From the NCBI GenBank assembly GCA_035499955.1, contig DATJXV010000011.1, positions 11,277-75,276 on the forward strand: 64,000 bases of DNA, written 5' to 3'. The notes beneath the pieces were generated by a model. The model saw only the letters and a program-made list of their open reading frames with translations, searched no databases and had not been told where the DNA came from. This DNA is from Casimicrobiaceae bacterium. Its GTDB lineage: Bacteria; Pseudomonadota; Gammaproteobacteria; Burkholderiales; Casimicrobiaceae. Below, piece by piece: positions 2,135-9,303 of the stretch (its first letter is position 1; every line of letters begins with the position of its first letter). Made by a program: the position numbers and the translations under genes.

Positions 2135-2830
2135 CTAGCCCGCGAACAGCTTCTCGACGTCGCCCCGTTGCTCGGCGCAATCCACGACCGGCCCGTGCGC
2201 GGGAATGAGGAAGTCCGGCGGATCGCGCGCGACCTCGGCCGCGAGCCAACGCTTGAGCGCGCGCCTGTCCTGCACCATGAACAGCGAGGCGAGGTTGTTG
2301 AAACGCAGGCCGGGGCCGCTGCTGCTGAGGGCGAAAAGCGCGCGCGCGACCGGATTGCGCGGCATCGCCTCGAAGTTCAGCACGACGTCGGTGACGTACC
2401 AGGCGCACCCGCGCGACGTGCGCATCTTCACGAGCGTCTCGCCGGTCTTGTAGTGCGGCAGGTCGACGAACGCGACCCCGGCGCCGGCGATCTTCATGTC
2501 CTCGCCGATCGGCAGGATCGGCGACAGGCCGGTCTTGGCCTGCACGCGCGCGATCGATTGCGCGGGCGCGTAGAGCACGGCGTCCGGGTAGCGCCGCTTC
2601 CACTCGGGAAGACCCAGGTAATGGAAGGCGTTCGAAGCCACGAGCGCCCTGACCGGCCCGTGGCGCGCGAGCTCGTCGAACACGCCGTCCGCGACGCGCC
2701 ACGGCGGGCTCGCGACCGCGAGGCCCCCATCCACGCCGACGGCGAGCGCGTTGGCAAGGCCGGGTCCGAACGAGTAGGCGAAGGTGAGGACGGGCAGCTT
2801 CGCGTCGAAGACGATCCAGGTGCCGGGCAT
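2135..2830 (-). CDS. DUF4336-like metallo-beta-lactamase-fold protein
   Basis: ALVASNAFHYLGLPEWKRRYPDAVLYAP and LIPAHG motifs; 231 aa. Confidence 0.6.
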   Translation of the reverse strand: MPGTWIVFDAKLPVLTFAYSFGPGLANALAVGVDGGLAVASPPWRVADGVFDELARHGPVRALVASNAFHYLGLPEWKRRYPDAVLYAPAQSIARVQAKTGLSPILPIGEDMKIAGAGVAFVDLPHYKTGETLVKMRTSRGCAWYVTDVVLNFEAMPRNPVARALFALSSSGPGLRFNNLASLFMVQDRRALKRWLAAEVARDPPDFLIPAHGPVVDCAEQRGDVEKLFAG

Positions 2831-2854: not shown

Positions 2855-5800
2855 TTATTGCACGTTGATGGGCGTAGTGTTAACGAGGCACACCCAGCAC
2901 TGTCCGTTTGCCGCCGACTCGATCAGCGTGGAGTACGTGTTCAGGTGAGGAGCCTGCGAGTCAGCCGGTGCATACCGCGCGCTTCCATCGGACATCTGAA
3001 CGAGCCTCGAGATCTGGAAATGGCCGTTGGGCGTCGTACTGAAGTTGGTCCAGTTCAGATCGTTGCTCAGGATCGTGACGGGTGGGCCGCTGGTGATACT
3101 GGGCGCCTCGAAATAGATTCCCTGAAAAGCTTTGCCTGAGGTTGTCCATCCCTGATTGACGGTGACGCCATTCAAGTCGAGGGCGGCCCCCGCCTTGAGC
3201 ACGATACCGCCGGGAAACGCAAAATCGCGCGCCATCCCGTCATCGTGAAGCTTGAGATTGCCGGTCGCCTGGACGATCATGCTTCCACCCCCGAACGACG
3301 GCTCTCCCGTCCCCGCCGGACGCACACCGCCGGATGGGATAGGCGCGCTGTTGTTCGGGAACATCGCGCCCGCCGGCCAATACGACGGCATCCACACCTC
3401 CGTGTTGCCGTTGACCTTCGCGTTGAGCACCTGGGGCGCGGTCCCGTAGAGGTTCAGAATGAGCCCGACATCGGCTCCCGTGGCCGGGTAGAGCTGAATG
3501 CCGTTGGAAAGGTAGTGCGAGCCGTTGACCGGATTGTTCGTGTACCCGAACGTCGACAGCGAGATCGTATTGCCTCGGAACTGCCCCGCTCCGTGAATGG
3601 CACCCGCGAGCAGCACGAGACCGTTCCCGCCGTCGAGCACTCCATCGTTGAGCAATTGAGCGCCCACGGCCGTGGTAACGCCCAAGGTGTCGACTTGCAG
3701 GCCGGCAGCGGCCGCAATCCGACCCGAGGAGGTGACCGTCACTCCGTTCGGATTCTTGACGACGAGTTGGGGCGCCGCGATCGATCCGCTGCCCTGCGCC
3801 TGGATGATCCCGTGAATCGAGCCCGGCGTGCCGCTCGTGTCGCTGAGCGATACGGTTTGACCAGCGGCGCCCGACTTGATCGTCAGCGTGTTGCCGCTTC
3901 CGAGATTGAGGCCCTGGAAATCGATTTCCGCGACCGAGCCCGCATTGCCCGGCGTGCTTCCGAGCTGTACCACGACATTCGGCTGAGGATTGGACATCGT
4001 GTTGCCGACCAGATCGGCGCCCTGCACAGTAATGGCGCCGTACGCATTGGTAGCGATGGTGCCCGTCCCCAGTGTCATGGGAGTGACCGTCAGATCGGCC
4101 CACCAGGCATGGTCGCAACTGAAGTCTCCGGCCGAATCGGTAACGAGCTGGAGCAGGATGTTCTTGCCTTGCCAACCGGAAACGTCGAGCGCTCCCGGAT
4201 GCCAGCCGCTCGCGGCTGGCTGAAACTGCGTCCAGTAGGCGAGGCCGTTGATGCGGACCTCGAAGCGCACACCCGACGTGCACGTCGCGGAATCGGCCAG
4301 CGCCGCAGACCAGGACAATCGCTGGTCGCCTGCGGGAATCGCCAGCACCCAGGACAGAATCGTGCGGCCATAGTCTGGCGGATGCGCGAATATCGCGTTC
4401 TGCCTTGCCGTGCCGGCCGAGATTGCGCTCGCGACGCTGCCGGAGCCGAAAATCGTCCCCGGTAGGGGCAGTTCGTTTTCACTCCCGAGCCAAGTGACGA
4501 AGGGGAGCGTCGCGAGATTCACGCCGCTCACGTTCGAGCCCGCCGCGAGAATCAGCGCGAACAGTCCCGGTACCGAGACGTTGTCGACCCGTAGCGCCCC
4601 GGGCCCGGCGTTTGAGAGCGCGCCGCTGCCGAAGAATCCCGACGGCGTCGCGCCGGGCCCCAGCACGAACGGAACCGATACCGTCAGCGGGCCCGTCGAC
4701 GACAACGCGAGGGCGCTGAAATACGCCCAATCGCACCCGGCGTTGCTGGCGGGCCCGGGATTGGTGACGATGCGCAACCGGACGGTCGTACCCGCATACG
4801 CGGAAAGGTCCACGCGGCCGTCCGTCCACCCCTGATGCAGCACGTTTTGCCGCCAAGCTTCGGTGCCGTTCACCGCCACACGAAACGTGACGCCGTCGGT
4901 GCAGGTAGCGCCGTCGTCCACGCCGACGGAAAACGTGAACGCCGTGGACGGGGGCACCGGCAAGCTCCACTCGACGAACGTTTCTCCTCCGGCATGGCCC
5001 TGCGCATACGGCGGATGCATGAAGATTCCCTGGCGGGCCACGCCCGCGACCGTTGCGGTGCCGACCGTGACGGTCGCGCCGAATCCAACCGGACCATCGA
5101 TGCCGTTTTCGTTCGTGCCGACCGTGGCCGCCCACAAGTTGGCGATGAAATCGTACGACGGCGCGGGAGCGAGCTGAATGAGGGCGAAGTTGGACGAGAT
5201 CATGCTCTGCGCGCCGATCTCGACCGTAGACGGCAGGCTGGAGACGTGCGACGTAGTGGGGCGCGGAACCGTGTCCAGCCAATACTGCTTGGTAGGATCG
5301 AGCCCGTAGATGCGCGTCGAGTCGAATGCCGGCCAACCGAGGGCGTAGCTCGCCGTATCGACCTGCGCCGCGTCGTGCGCGCGCTGGTAAACCGGCGCGC
5401 CGCCGCTGCTCACGCCGACCAGGCTTCCGGTATCGACAAGGGCCGCGGTCGTGGTGGAGCCGGGGGCGGCCTTGTAGGGAATGAGGACGCCGTTCCAGGA
5501 TCCGGTCCAATCCGGCTGGAATCCGTTGGCCTGCCACGATTGCAGCCATCTCAATAGGCGCGCGTTGTCGGCGTTGGCGAGGTCCAGGTCGTTCTGGCCC
5601 TCGATGGACAACGTCGGCAGGATGGCCTGCCGCTCGAGCTGTGACACGAACCCCTTCAGTGCCGGATCGGTGGCAAAGGGCTGGCCAAGATGGCCGTAGT
5701 ACTGCATGCGGCCGCTGCCTTGGCTGTTCCAGAGGAAGTTGACGATCGGATGACCCGGGGGGCGGCCCGGACCCCAGATATCGCCCACCCACCAATTCTG

Positions 5801-7240
5801 GGCGAACGCGTTATAGCGGTAGATCACGTCATTCATGCCTTCGCCCCCGAGGGCCAGGCCGGGGAAGGCGGCGAGCAGGTCCTTGTGCAACTGCGCGGAC
5901 CCCTGCGGATAGCTCATCCCCTCGATGGCACCGTTCCCATCGCTGTACATCGGGCCCGAGATATCGAGATGGAGCGCGTCGGGCTGGATCGCCGCCATGG
6001 CGGCGCCCACCCGTTGCACGAACAGGTTGCGGTAGACGGACGAAGCCGGATTGATGTACGCGAAGCGAGTGGGCTCGGTCGGCGGATAGTCCCAGTGCCA
6101 ACCCATCGGCGAGAGCGACCGCGGATCCTTGAGTTGCCACGATTGCACGGAAGCAAAGTCGGGATTGCTCGGCGTGACGCCGATTAGGTCGGTGTGCAGC
6201 ATGACCTTGAAACCGAGTGAATGCGCCTTGGCGACAAAAGTCGCCACTCCGGGAGATGCCGTGTAGTCCGGATAGTTGTGATCGTATCCGGCCTGGCGCC
6301 AGCCGACGAGGTAGATCAGCGTCTGCGAGGGCGTGAGCACCGTCGCGAGGGAGTCGAGCAGGCTCGCATCGTTGCTGTAGGAGGTCACCACGGCTCGAAT
6401 CTGCTGAACCCAGGCAGGACTCGCGTTGGCCGGGCGCGGACGATTCGCGGCGAGCCAATCGCGGTAGACCGCAGCCGCGGTTCTCCAGTCGCCGGAAAAC
6501 ATCTTGAGCCGCCACTCGACGGTTGGTACCGACGTGGCGTCGGGCCATGGCCCGATCGCGTCCGTCGCAATCGAAAGGTCCAGGGTCGAGCTCGTCCGGC
6601 TGGCAATGCGCAGTTGCTTGAACAGGTACAGCGGATCCGTGGAATAGAGGACCATGCTGCCGGCGGACGTCTCGTACACGAACATCTGCGCCGTCCAGTC
6701 TTCCGGGTAGCGAGTCGAGGCGCTGTACATCCGATGCTGCCGGTCGATGACGACCCCCGTACTTGCGGGAACGATCAGCCGGCCCGCATCCAGGTCGAGA
6801 CCGCCAATGCCCCAATAGGCCGCGGTGACGCCCGCCTGCGTCGCCTGTCCAGACATCTTGATCACGATTTCCTGGCTCGCGGCGTCGACGCTTACCGCCA
6901 AGGTCACCGAACGAATGGAATCCTGCACCGTCAACGAGGCGACGGTCGTGCCGTTCTGCACGCTCGTCGTCCAATCGGACGCAGCTACGAGTTGGCCGGG
7001 ACCCGCGAGGGTTTCGAGATTTGCGAGCGGCGAAGACGGCGCCAGCCTCAAGTACGACTCGCCCGTGGCGGTGTTGGTCAGGCCGGCCAGGTCCGGGCCT
7101 TGAAAAGTCGCGACGGCGTTGGCGGTGGTGACGGTCAACGCCTGTCCCGATGCCACGATCTGCGCGTGCGCCGGGGAGAAGAGAACGAGCAAGGACAACG
7201 ATGCGCAGGCGCAGTACGACCAGCCGTATCGCAACTTCAT
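2855..7240 (-). CDS. Large secreted multidomain protein (1461 aa): signal peptide, DUF6259-like GH TIM barrel, two NPCBM/CBM-like modules, Gly/Asn/Thr-rich C-terminal domain
   Basis: GGAGG SD upstream of ATG 7240 (MKLRYG...SPAHA/Q). GWRQAGYDHNYPDY, GFKVMLH and PDALHLDISG segments; two repeats of the HPP...DGVTFRV/GVRFEV...W...VDLS...CDxA pattern. The first 170 aa of the ORF-track call are shadow of the cyclase. Confidence 0.75.
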   Translation of the reverse strand: MKLRYGWSYCACASLSLLVLFSPAHAQIVASGQALTVTTANAVATFQGPDLAGLTNTATGESYLRLAPSSPLANLETLAGPGQLVAASDWTTSVQNGTTVASLTVQDSIRSVTLAVSVDAASQEIVIKMSGQATQAGVTAAYWGIGGLDLDAGRLIVPASTGVVIDRQHRMYSASTRYPEDWTAQMFVYETSAGSMVLYSTDPLYLFKQLRIASRTSSTLDLSIATDAIGPWPDATSVPTVEWRLKMFSGDWRTAAAVYRDWLAANRPRPANASPAWVQQIRAVVTSYSNDASLLDSLATVLTPSQTLIYLVGWRQAGYDHNYPDYTASPGVATFVAKAHSLGFKVMLHTDLIGVTPSNPDFASVQSWQLKDPRSLSPMGWHWDYPPTEPTRFAYINPASSVYRNLFVQRVGAAMAAIQPDALHLDISGPMYSDGNGAIEGMSYPQGSAQLHKDLLAAFPGLALGGEGMNDVIYRYNAFAQNWWVGDIWGPGRPPGHPIVNFLWNSQGSGRMQYYGHLGQPFATDPALKGFVSQLERQAILPTLSIEGQNDLDLANADNARLLRWLQSWQANGFQPDWTGSWNGVLIPYKAAPGSTTTAALVDTGSLVGVSSGGAPVYQRAHDAAQVDTASYALGWPAFDSTRIYGLDPTKQYWLDTVPRPTTSHVSSLPSTVEIGAQSMISSNFALIQLAPAPSYDFIANLWAATVGTNENGIDGPVGFGATVTVGTATVAGVARQGIFMHPPYAQGHAGGETFVEWSLPVPPSTAFTFSVGVDDGATCTDGVTFRVAVNGTEAWRQNVLHQGWTDGRVDLSAYAGTTVRLRIVTNPGPASNAGCDWAYFSALALSSTGPLTVSVPFVLGPGATPSGFFGSGALSNAGPGALRVDNVSVPGLFALILAAGSNVSGVNLATLPFVTWLGSENELPLPGTIFGSGSVASAISAGTARQNAIFAHPPDYGRTILSWVLAIPAGDQRLSWSAALADSATCTSGVRFEVRINGLAYWTQFQPAASGWHPGALDVSGWQGKNILLQLVTDSAGDFSCDHAWWADLTVTPMTLGTGTIATNAYGAITVQGADLVGNTMSNPQPNVVVQLGSTPGNAGSVAEIDFQGLNLGSGNTLTIKSGAAGQTVSLSDTSGTPGSIHGIIQAQGSGSIAAPQLVVKNPNGVTVTSSGRIAAAAGLQVDTLGVTTAVGAQLLNDGVLDGGNGLVLLAGAIHGAGQFRGNTISLSTFGYTNNPVNGSHYLSNGIQLYPATGADVGLILNLYGTAPQVLNAKVNGNTEVWMPSYWPAGAMFPNNSAPIPSGGVRPAGTGEPSFGGGSMIVQATGNLKLHDDGMARDFAFPGGIVLKAGAALDLNGVTVNQGWTTSGKAFQGIYFEAPSITSGPPVTILSNDLNWTNFSTTPNGHFQISRLVQMSDGSARYAPADSQAPHLNTYSTLIESAANGQCWVCLVNTTPINVQ

Positions 7241-7266: not shown

Positions 7267-9303
7267 CTAGTCCTTCAACCGGTGCGCGGCTTCCAGCAGC
7301 AGCCGCCGCGCCTCCGCGCGCTGCGTGCCCGTGAGCCTGCGCTGATCGATCACGAGCAGAAGGCCATCCTGCTCCTGCCGGATGACGCGGCCTTCGCCGC
7401 TCGCGTCGTGCAGGCCGACAACGCGATGCGTGCGCACGGGCTTCGGGAAGCCCTTGACCGTGATCGTCCCCGTTTCCTCGGTAATCACTTCGTCCTTGAC
7501 CAGGGCGTAGGTCTCGTGCGCGAGCAGGATGCCGCCCAGGTCGGCGTGCTGCTGCAGCCGCGAGGCGAGGTTCACCTCGTTGCCGATGATCGTGTAGTCG
7601 ACGCGCTCGTTGCTGCCGAAATTGCCCACGGTGCAGAAGCCGGTGTTGATGCCGATGCGCAGCTGGAACACGTTCTCCTGTCCGCGCTCGCGCCATTCCG
7701 CCTGCAGGTCGCGCATGCGCTGCTGCATCGCGATGGCCATCCGCACGCACGCGGTGGCGTCCTCGCGCGGGCCGCGCGTCTCGGGGTCGCCGAAGAAAAG
7801 CATGATGGCGTCGCCGATGAACTTGTCGATGGTCGCGCCGTATTCGAGCGCGATCGACGACATCTCGCGCAGGTACTGGTTGAGCAGGATGGTGAGCTCC
7901 TCCGACTCGAGCATGTCGGTCGTCTCGGTGAAGCCCGCGATGTCGGAGAAGAAGATGGTGAGCTTCTTGCGCTGCGCGGCCACCTCGGCCGTCTTCTCGC
8001 CTGTGAATATCGAACGGTAGATCTGCGGCGACAGGTACTTCGACAGCTTGGCCGAAAGCGACTCGAGCATCCGGTTCTTCTCGCGCGCCTGGCGGTTCGC
8101 CTCCTCGGTCTGCGCCACCGCGTCGCGCAGCTTCGCCTCGGCGCTCTTGAGCTCCGTGATATCGCTCATCGCCGTCACGGTGCCGCCGTCGGCGGCGCGC
8201 CGCCGCGCGATGCGATAGACGCGGCCGTCAGGTGTGCGGTCCTCGAAGGCCACGCCGGTCGGGTTGCACAGGCTCTCGACGCGCTGGGCCACGTGATCGT
8301 CGACATCGCCCTCGCCATAGTAGCCGTGCTCGGCGAGGTAGCGCAGGAGCGCGGGGTAAGGTTGCCCCGGCTGCAAGAGCTCCGGTGGAACGGGATACCA
8401 TTCCGCGAAGCGTCCGTTGCAAATCACGATGTCGAGATTCGCGTCGGTGTACACGAGAGCCCCCGGCATGTTGTCGAGCGCGCCGTGCAGAATCGCCTCC
8501 TTGCGCGCAAGCGCCGCCTCCGCCCGCTTGAAGTCGGTGATGTCGGTGATGACCGTGACCGTCCCCCCGCCGTCGGCGCGCCGGCGCAGCACGCGGTAGA
8601 CGCGACCGTCCGGCGTGCGGTCCTCGAGCGTGTGCCCCGTCGGATGGAGCAGGCTCGCAACGCGCTTCGCGACGAGTGCGTCGACGTCGCCCTCTCCGTA
8701 ATAGCCGTGCATGGCGAGCCAGCGCAGGAACTCCGGATAGGGGCGACCGGGCGCGAGGAGCTCCTTCGGTGCCGGGTACATCTCGGCGAATCGCGGGTTG
8801 CGCAATACGATCATGCCGTGCGCGTCGGTGTACGCGAGCGCGCCCGGCATGTTGTCGAGTGCGACGGCAAGCTGCGCTTCCTTCTGGGCGGCCGCGCGCT
8901 CGGCGGCCTTGCGCGCGGTGATGTCCTCGTAGGCGAGGACGAGGCCGTCGTGGACGATCGGCGTGTACCGCACGAGCAGCAACTGGCCCGAGGAGGTGAC
9001 GTGCTCCAGCGAATACGGCTCGCGGCCGCGCGCGCGCGTCAGGCGCGACATCGCGTGCGCCTCGACGTCGCCGGCGCCATAGTCGCCCCGCCGCGCGTTG
9101 TAGCGGTACAACTCGACGATCTCGGTGCCCGGCTTCACCAGCGCGGCCGGGTAGCCGCGGAGCGTGCGGAACGCCTTGTTGCTCGTCACCAGTCGAAGGT
9201 CGCGGTCGAAGATCGCGAAGCCGAACGCGAGCGTATCAAGACCGGCGCGCAGCAGGTGCGCGGCGCGATCACCAGCGGAGCCGATGCGGTTCGCTTCCGG
9301 CAT
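7267..9303 (-). CDS. Soluble class III adenylate cyclase with three PAS-fold (PAS_7-like) repeats
   Basis: FFSDIAGFT, DKFIGDAIM, RIGINTG, DYTIIGNEVNLASRLQ; the Lys and Asp determinants indicate ATP specificity. Three internal repeats (ALDNMPGAL...YLAEHGYYG); no TM helix. Confidence 0.9.
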   Translation of the reverse strand: MPEANRIGSAGDRAAHLLRAGLDTLAFGFAIFDRDLRLVTSNKAFRTLRGYPAALVKPGTEIVELYRYNARRGDYGAGDVEAHAMSRLTRARGREPYSLEHVTSSGQLLLVRYTPIVHDGLVLAYEDITARKAAERAAAQKEAQLAVALDNMPGALAYTDAHGMIVLRNPRFAEMYPAPKELLAPGRPYPEFLRWLAMHGYYGEGDVDALVAKRVASLLHPTGHTLEDRTPDGRVYRVLRRRADGGGTVTVITDITDFKRAEAALARKEAILHGALDNMPGALVYTDANLDIVICNGRFAEWYPVPPELLQPGQPYPALLRYLAEHGYYGEGDVDDHVAQRVESLCNPTGVAFEDRTPDGRVYRIARRRAADGGTVTAMSDITELKSAEAKLRDAVAQTEEANRQAREKNRMLESLSAKLSKYLSPQIYRSIFTGEKTAEVAAQRKKLTIFFSDIAGFTETTDMLESEELTILLNQYLREMSSIALEYGATIDKFIGDAIMLFFGDPETRGPREDATACVRMAIAMQQRMRDLQAEWRERGQENVFQLRIGINTGFCTVGNFGSNERVDYTIIGNEVNLASRLQQHADLGGILLAHETYALVKDEVITEETGTITVKGFPKPVRTHRVVGLHDASGEGRVIRQEQDGLLLVIDQRRLTGTQRAEARRLLLEAAHRLKD

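Follow-up and report, generated by a model that had tools for sequence, protein, structure and literature searches.

Is the C-terminal end of a large, enzyme-like protein from a Casimicrobiaceae bacterium a module in its own right, and if so, how would it contribute to the export or attachment of the proteins that carry it? The gene lies on the minus strand of the 64,000-nt stretch that we analysed (the window; assembly GCA_035499955.1, contig DATJXV010000011.1, positions 11,277 to 75,276), and the C-terminal module of its product starts directly after the second of two NPCBM-like repeats identified with Pfam. In two-partner secretion (TPS), a TPS domain leads a Cys-poor fibre, TpsA, through its TpsB partner. 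The system is defined by the N-terminal position of that domain (PMC5422565). What is new here is that more than 20 kinds of enzymes carry a TPS-type unit as a portable tag at their C-terminus, in one lineage that also encodes an unusual TpsB-like protein. The module may be an undescribed way to export enzymes or to attach them to the cell surface.

Searched in all six frames with the 406-aa segment, the bacterium's own 4.6-Mb assembly yielded four copies of the module, the other three being 47–57% identical to that of the window and joined to unrelated N-termini (Table 1). Among 5.8 billion proteins, a word-indexed search gave 97 homologues of 803–2557 amino acids (aa), and a full hidden Markov model (HMM) scan of 1.84 billion representative proteins gave about 148 clusters at 50% identity, the source labels of the homologues being metagenome-assembled genomes of Casimicrobiaceae and Burkholderiales. 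The module was located at the extreme C-terminus, within a few residues of the end, in 120 of 129 end-to-end matches, while in the other nine it was N-terminal (five), stand-alone (three, each consisting of a signal peptide and the module and nothing else) or internal (one). More than 20 passenger types were found with the C-terminal modules, including peptidases (S8, M12/reprolysin, astacin, matrixin, M64 and gametolysin), propellers (BNR sialidase-like, Kelch, RCC1 and YVTN) and purple-acid-phosphatase, FG-GAP, Calx-beta and Ig-like domains, and the NCBI annotation names the carriers by their passenger alone. The first-pass annotation had proposed a modular domain appended to diverse passengers, and both the paralogues and the wider family bear this out: the domain is a true portable module and not a chance feature.

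Two further forms of the gene were observed. The public metagenome proteins P0077, P0078, P0079, P0095 and P0111 consist of a signal peptide, the module and a 555-aa DUF1800 domain (PF08811); here the module stands before its cargo, and is thus used in the canonical TpsA order too. In one genome, a single one of the module genes was split between two adjacent frames (G036:C2:291591-292785, module residues 1–224 and 225–398); this frameshift marks a pseudogene or else stems from a mistake in the assembly.

An AlphaFold2 (AF2) model of the module, built from an 86-sequence alignment, was a very confident all-beta helix with two short helices at its end (predicted local distance difference test (pLDDT) 97.2, predicted template modelling score (pTM) 0.94). 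When the model was compared with the PDB using Foldseek, ranks 1–23 were all TpsA secretion domains (HMW1-PP, EtpA, HxuA, HpmA and Fha30), the top match being HMW1-PP with an E value of 1.4e-4, a probability of 1.00 and template modelling (TM) scores of 0.43/0.46, and beta-helix proteins outside the TPS class appeared only at E>1. As modelled, the module is a self-contained right-handed beta-helix of TPS type. No Pfam or NCBIfam family matched it above threshold; on the module alone, PF05860 scored 19.0 bits (E 0.0014), under its cut-off of 33.5, and TIGR01901 scored 22.2 bits (E 1e-4), under its cut-off of 29.1. Sub-threshold TPS matches were also obtained for two of eight other family members, a precomputed PF05860 entry existed for three of the 97 homologues, and several homologues bear the JGI name 'filamentous hemagglutinin family protein'. 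Comparison of the module sequence with PDB chains returned only noise (serpin matches, E about 2).

The module differs in composition from the rest of the protein, with 14.5% Gly as compared with 9.6% and 8.1% Asn as compared with 3.7%, and this Gly/Asn/Thr-rich tail ends in ...NGQCWVCLVNTTPINVQ (the protein end is also written ...APHLNTYSTLIESAANGQCWVCLVNTTPINVQ, which includes CWVC), the last residue being Gln. The shift in composition and the terminal CxxC noted at first pass were therefore confirmed. Motif frequencies were taken from alignment columns over the 129 family members. Conservation peaked family-wide at NPYG, the Gly of NPNG, NNPVNG, H-x-N-T-Y and CxxC, with NPYG and NNPVNG being stronger family motifs than NPNG, and exactly two Cys were present in 107 of 117 modules. 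TPS domains are described as having an NPNG(I) turn, and an NPNL motif that is limited to the FHA/HpmA subfamily (PMC5422565). Where the TPS NPNG(I) aligns, the window protein reads KNPNGVTV, and the family frequencies of this turn are N 56%, P 43%, N 40% and G 97%, Gly being its sole near-invariant residue; no NPNL equivalent was seen in the module family.

Other known export signals were considered and rejected. A classical (type Va) autotransporter was discarded on the absence of a Pfam barrel match, the AF2 model of a soluble beta-helix and an end that is Gln and not aromatic. RTX proteins of type I secretion, PEP-CTERM and other sorting tags gave no Pfam or NCBIfam match on the whole protein or the tail at E values up to 1, and a tag of the type IX secretion system (T9SS) was rejected given the lack of an HMM match and the AF2 fold. 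The first-pass annotation was right in seeing no autotransporter, RTX or PEP-CTERM signatures; its suggestion that the domain was unrelated to known secretion families is refuted by the TPS fold, the weak TPS HMM matches and the TpsA-like homology that follows, a match to a known TPS family being one of the refuting conditions set at first pass.

The bacterium's own genome encodes exactly one ShlB/FhaC-family (TpsB-like) protein, on contig C84, and no canonical PF05860 TpsA. Right after the TpsB-like gene lies a gene (C84:25568-28585) for a 1005-aa TpsA-like protein with a signal peptide, in which Pfam found zero matches. BLASTP aligned its residues 122–207 with module residues 55–126 (E 2e-4) and its residues 860–985 with module residues 263–385 (E 1e-8), in the same order, and hhalign, using alignments on both sides, matched module residues 166–391 to residues 751–982 of the TpsA-like protein with a probability of 99.2% and an E value of 1.7e-19. 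Since both ends of the module match those of the TpsA-like protein collinearly, the module corresponds to a TpsA-like protein of this clade minus a shaft of about 600 residues. The clade's TpsA-like proteins share with the module an N-terminal TPS-like region and about 230 C-terminal residues homologous to the respective module halves, and they occur in lineages that overlap with those of the module. They differ in having the canonical order (signal peptide, TPS-like region, shaft of about 600 aa, C-terminal domain), in lacking an enzyme passenger and in adjoining the TpsB-like gene, and some of them lack the CxxC. Taken together, these results indicate that the module is TPS-type at the level of fold and by descent, while it misses three features of TpsA membership, namely a curated HMM score, the N-terminal position and operon linkage to TpsB.

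At this locus, genes for a Wzt-like polysaccharide ABC ATPase and a sulfotransferase-like protein come first; the TpsB-like gene follows, then between one and five TpsA-like genes in tandem, and last a methyltransferase-like gene. This neighbourhood is conserved at C84:20228-30836 and at loci L015-L020, with five tandem TpsA-like paralogues in genome G036. HMW1 is glycosylated by HMW1C, and by analogy this neighbourhood suggests that fibres or module might be glycosylated or modified in another way. A separate gene 3 kb downstream of the TpsA-like gene (C84:31932-33305, minus strand, running off the contig end) encodes a protein with at least five Big_3_5-type Ig repeats, which ends in ...NNVCVGRGC and does not carry the module.

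The TpsB-like protein (L007:1501-3051, which corresponds to C84:23680-25233; orthologues L008-L012) scored 34.3 bits with PF03865, over the cut-off of 22.7. Its AF2 model (pLDDT 85) presented two POTRA-like beta-alpha-alpha-beta-beta units and a 16-strand barrel, for which Foldseek returned CdiB (TM 0.75, E 5e-25) and FhaC (TM 0.69), with BamA and TamA ranking lower. The protein is thus predicted to have a true TpsB fold. Its C-terminal residue is Phe, and the GxDxG motif, the usual salt-bridge partner of the L6 motif of these transporters, is invariant (VGDSG).

To follow the two genes across the family, we surveyed 326 of its genomes. The module was present in 31 and the TpsB-like gene in 23, with both in 21, the module only in ten, the TpsB-like gene only in two and neither in 293. 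Eight of the ten module-only genomes were less than 90% complete or more than 5% contaminated, and of the remaining two, G221 had only fragments at contig ends and G234 only a fragment of the TpsB-like gene. The corresponding counts among high-quality genomes were 13, 1, 1 and 139. Positive genomes carried one TpsB-like gene each, the exceptions being G303, where it was in two adjacent pieces, and the module-negative G217, which had two copies; the module genes were dispersed and numbered three to eight per genome, a pattern that would fit one transporter with many clients. The module was thus present in 21 of the 23 genomes with the TpsB-like gene, but these fall mostly in one clade. A second genus had both genes (in G184), and the module only was found in four other genomes, all incomplete, belonging to the genus of G184 and to a third genus. 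In an order-wide sample of 401 genomes from 167 genera, the module was detected in the window's own genus only. The module is a young, lineage-restricted invention.

We propose that the module makes the enzymes that carry it clients of a TpsB/TpsA-like system, for export or for surface display or anchoring, a reading to which we give an even chance. We read the module as a complete mini-TpsA, in which a TPS-like domain (about 165 aa) is fused directly to the TpsA-like C-terminal domain of the clade (about 240 aa, with the CxxC end), and which the lineage uses as a portable, mostly C-terminal tag on hydrolases and binding proteins that leave the cytoplasm by the Sec route. Once such a protein has reached the periplasm, its TPS-like part would be recognized by the POTRA domains of the one TpsB-like Omp85 protein specific to the clade, the module would cross the outer membrane and fold at the cell surface, and the surface-folded module would either export the attached enzyme or retain it on the surface beside the TpsA-like fibres. 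By analogy with HMW1 and HxuA, the C-terminal Cys pair may serve as a stopper or anchor. In those two proteins, a C-terminal disulfide-containing anchor keeps TpsA in the TpsB pore (PMC5422565), which is a precedent for such a role of the module's Cys pair.

Fold, homology, use as a module and gene co-occurrence are what the analysis shows; from these we infer that the carriers depend on the TpsB-like protein, where the enzymes end up and how a folded N-terminal passenger would cross the outer membrane. Beyond the points above, three observations support the TpsB route. Both conserved TpsA ends are kept in the module; the module is almost absent where the TpsB-like gene is missing, and the TpsB-like gene does occur without the module; and forms in canonical order exist, both stand-alone and N-terminal before DUF1800.

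A number of results weigh against this proposal, and some of them concern the putative transporter. A Sec signal peptide was absent, as judged by eye, in about 60 TpsB-like homologues, whose N-terminus reads M-x-x-D-L-P-P and continues with a Pro/Ala-rich stretch, also in those of only 22–27% identity. This N-terminus has neither a basic n-region nor a hydrophobic core, residues 1–24 are disordered and the H1 plug helix is absent in the AF2 model, and an upstream in-frame start that would provide a signal peptide was sought and none was found, the frame of one orthologue closing 15 codons upstream. In Omp85 proteins the L6 VRGY/F motif pairs with F/GxDxG on strand beta13 (PMC5422565). In the TpsB-like protein this tetrad aligns to L-T/S-A-W, from which the Arg is absent (around residues 403–421 of L007). 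With neither a signal peptide nor the L6 Arg, the working mode and the location of the TpsB-like protein are uncertain.

The cargo, the position of the module and the genetics also count here. The passengers are Cys-rich (median of 9 Cys, up to 32, with pairs 40–56 residues apart), while type V cargo crosses in the unfolded state and typically contains few Cys, which makes passage through the TpsB barrel doubtful. In addition, one module carrier, the public metagenome protein P0025 (974 aa), has a twin-arginine (Tat)-like leader (MPITRRELIRRLSALSSAGMAG...), which would imply export in a folded state. To our knowledge, a C-terminal TPS domain has no precedent. The domain is N-terminal by definition in known TpsA proteins (PMC5422565). 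A module gene was never adjacent to the TpsB-like gene. The nominal Fisher p values of the co-occurrence (1.7e-23 and 7e-17) overstate the association, since the positive genomes mostly belong to one clade and much of the co-occurrence reflects shared descent: in a tree of GspD, the secretin of the type II secretion system (T2SS), from 15 genomes, the six positives tested formed one well-supported clade, with a single negative inside an unresolved node. Co-occurrence through many independent events was tested and is not borne out by this tree. Finally, GspD itself was present in 15 of 15 genomes tested, module-positive or not, which rules out that the absence of a T2SS forces the enzymes onto a TpsB route and means that folded enzymes have a conventional way out.

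The main alternative, to which we give less than an even chance, is that the carriers are ordinary T2SS substrates that fold and form their disulfide bonds in the periplasm and exit via GspD. The module would then be only a non-catalytic binding or retention domain, similar in use to a dockerin or a carbohydrate-binding module (CBM), which might bind a surface glycan, the substrate or the TpsA-like fibres, and the TpsB-like protein would be uninvolved. The passengers, among them proteases (S8, M12, astacin and matrixin), sialidase-like proteins, phosphatases and a glycoside hydrolase (GH) with CBM, are of the kind that the T2SS typically exports, and their Cys content with widely spaced pairs, the single Tat-like leader, the GspD found in every genome tested, the TpsB-like protein without a signal peptide and a co-occurrence largely confined to one clade all agree with this route, as does the occurrence of the module in N-terminal, C-terminal or stand-alone form, which is expected of an autonomous folded domain. 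However, it is not obvious why a plain binding domain should keep both TpsA ends, with the TPS turns and the CxxC cap, and 13 of the 14 high-quality genomes with the module also carry the TpsB-like gene, which in turn occurs without the module. The T2SS is also found in nine tested module-negative genomes, so that it leaves the distribution of the module unexplained.

A second alternative, which we judge improbable, is that the module passes through the barrel of the TpsB-like protein to fold on the outside, with the passenger left behind, already folded, in the periplasm, giving an outer-membrane-spanning protein that would hold periplasmic enzymes at the outer membrane or display the beta-helix alone. 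Such an arrangement would accommodate folded, disulfide-bonded passengers that could not follow the module through the TpsB pore, and it has a parallel in HMW1 and HxuA, in which the chain stays lodged in TpsB while a small, disulfide-bonded domain remains on the periplasmic side (PMC5422565). Nevertheless, proteases with prodomains, glycosidase-like enzymes with CBMs and Ig-like or Calx-beta spacers are typically extracellular and not periplasmic, and with one TpsB-like gene as against three to eight module genes and several TpsA-like genes, permanent occupancy would block the other clients. That the TPS likeness is only that of a generic beta-helix, a lineage-specific repeat fold unconnected with two-partner secretion, is very improbable: scores of 19–22 bits against curated cut-offs of 33.5 and 29.1, modest TM values (0.43–0.46) and a best E value of 1.4e-4 would allow it, but the 23 top structures are all TPS domains with no other beta-helix class below E=1, TPS HMM matches recur in several homologues, and separate profile–profile homology links the module to TpsA-like genes adjoining a gene of TpsB fold.

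Among known systems, the best structural matches of the module are the TpsA proteins of the HMW1/HxuA/EtpA type, the second TPS-domain family of type Vb secretion (2odl, 4i84/4rt6 and 8cpk). Like these, the module is modelled as a right-handed beta-helix. It may also share their NPNG-type turn, of which only the Gly is near-invariant in the module family, and no equivalent of the NPNL hairpin was seen, the lack of this hairpin being a feature of the HMW1/HxuA subfamily (PMC5422565). HMW1 and HxuA have a disulfide-containing C-terminal anchor, to which the conserved Cys pair of the module may correspond, and a putative partner of predicted TpsB fold is encoded in its own genome. Unlike them, it is placed C-terminal to large Cys-rich enzymes in 120 of 129 cases, has no shaft (406 aa in total), scores below curated thresholds and is unlinked to the TpsB-like gene.

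Extending the client proposal, a single divergent TpsB-like Omp85 protein that exports or anchors a repertoire of unrelated Cys-rich enzymes would represent a reversed-order class of two-partner secretion, which we put forward tentatively and regard as rather unlikely. If true, it would add a subclass to type V secretion and, in Proteobacteria, a counterpart to the C-terminal domain (CTD) system of T9SS. Type Ve is recognized as a subclass by its reversed order of transport and passenger domains. These inverse autotransporters (intimin/invasin) are a conceptual parallel to the passenger-first order seen here; in contrast to the module they carry their own barrel, and no relation in sequence or fold was found. 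Besides general knowledge, this parallel is based on an overview of the type V subclasses (PMC5422565).

Functional analogies also exist outside type V secretion, with other machinery. The T9SS CTD of Bacteroidota is a lineage-restricted C-terminal module found on many hydrolases, which directs outer-membrane passage and surface attachment, and the dockerin is a conserved C-terminal module that docks unrelated hydrolases to a scaffold. The former is a beta-sandwich of about 80 aa and the latter a Ca-binding domain of about 70 aa, as compared with the 406-aa beta-helix, and the module had no Pfam or NCBIfam match to either. A search of the literature library available retrieved no paper using the terms C-terminal or internal TPS domain or inverse two-partner secretion, which is weak negative evidence. 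A C-terminal TPS-type module on enzymes is itself undescribed, and the first-pass idea of an undescribed secretion or attachment route thus remains, in a more concrete form.

If the tag works via the TpsB-like protein, type V machinery would be able to handle cargo placed before its secretion domain, and the module would provide a new mode of enzyme display in Gram-negative bacteria and a compact display tag of 400 aa for biotechnology. If it is not TpsB-dependent, it would be a clean case of a secretion domain re-used for binding or retention. Whichever holds, neither Pfam nor NCBIfam has a name for the module, which merits a family model.

The coordinates of the host gene, its parts and the other carriers of the same genome are given in Table 1. 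The start codon is preceded by GGAGG, and the signal peptide reads MKLRYGW...SPAHA, followed by Q. The DUF6259 GH-like region (Pfam PF19773, E 2e-11) covers residues 245–426 (nt 5963–6508), and the NPCBM-like repeats (PF08305, E 7e-9 over two stretches) lie at about nt 4721–4975 and 4085–4411, both before residue ~1052, the bounds of the second repeat being those of our own reading of the sequence.

Table 1. Features of the host gene and its C-terminal module (window coordinates), and module carriers in the same genome
Feature	Position	Strand	Description
Full gene	2855..7240	minus	Open reading frame (ORF), ATG 7240, TAA 2855-2857, product 1461 aa
Sec signal peptide, aa 1-26	7163..7240	minus	MKLRYGWSYCACASLSLLVLFSPAHA, then Q; judged from sequence, without a predictor
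Passenger	4085..6508	minus	DUF6259 GH-like region and two NPCBM-like repeats
C-terminal module, aa 1056-1461, 406 aa	2858..4075	minus	AF2 fold; family HMM end to end in 129 proteins
TPS-like N-terminal part, module residues 1-165	3581..4075	minus	PF05860, TIGR01901, BLASTP to TpsA-like neighbour
C-terminal conserved part, module residues 166-406	2858..3580	minus	Homology to clade TpsA-like C-terminal domain (hhalign, BLASTP)
NAYG (family N-cap motif NPYG)	4037..4048	minus	N 93%, P 93%, Y 92%, G 98%
NPNG turn motif	3743..3754	minus	Position of TPS-domain NPNG(I) in PF05860/TIGR01901 alignments
NNPVNG, top conserved family motif	3521..3538	minus	N 91%, N 96%, P 96%, V 82%, N 79%, G 96%
CWVC (CxxC)	2888..2899	minus	Sole Cys pair in the module, 10 residues from C-terminus; Cys 96% and 97% conserved
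Own-genome carrier	Window gene	minus	GH-like/NPCBM passenger
Own-genome carrier	Contig C41		S8 subtilase with prodomain
Own-genome carrier	Contig C39		HEMGH zinc-metalloprotease, three Big_3_5 and one Calx-beta domain
Own-genome carrier	Contig C86 (contig end cuts gene)		Unknown Cys-rich domain and Big_3_5

The gene is flanked on the same strand by two others. Downstream, a 231-aa ORF (window 2135-2830, minus strand) had zero Pfam matches at E values up to 1; upstream, 7267-9303 (minus strand) encodes an adenylate/guanylate cyclase with three PAS domains.

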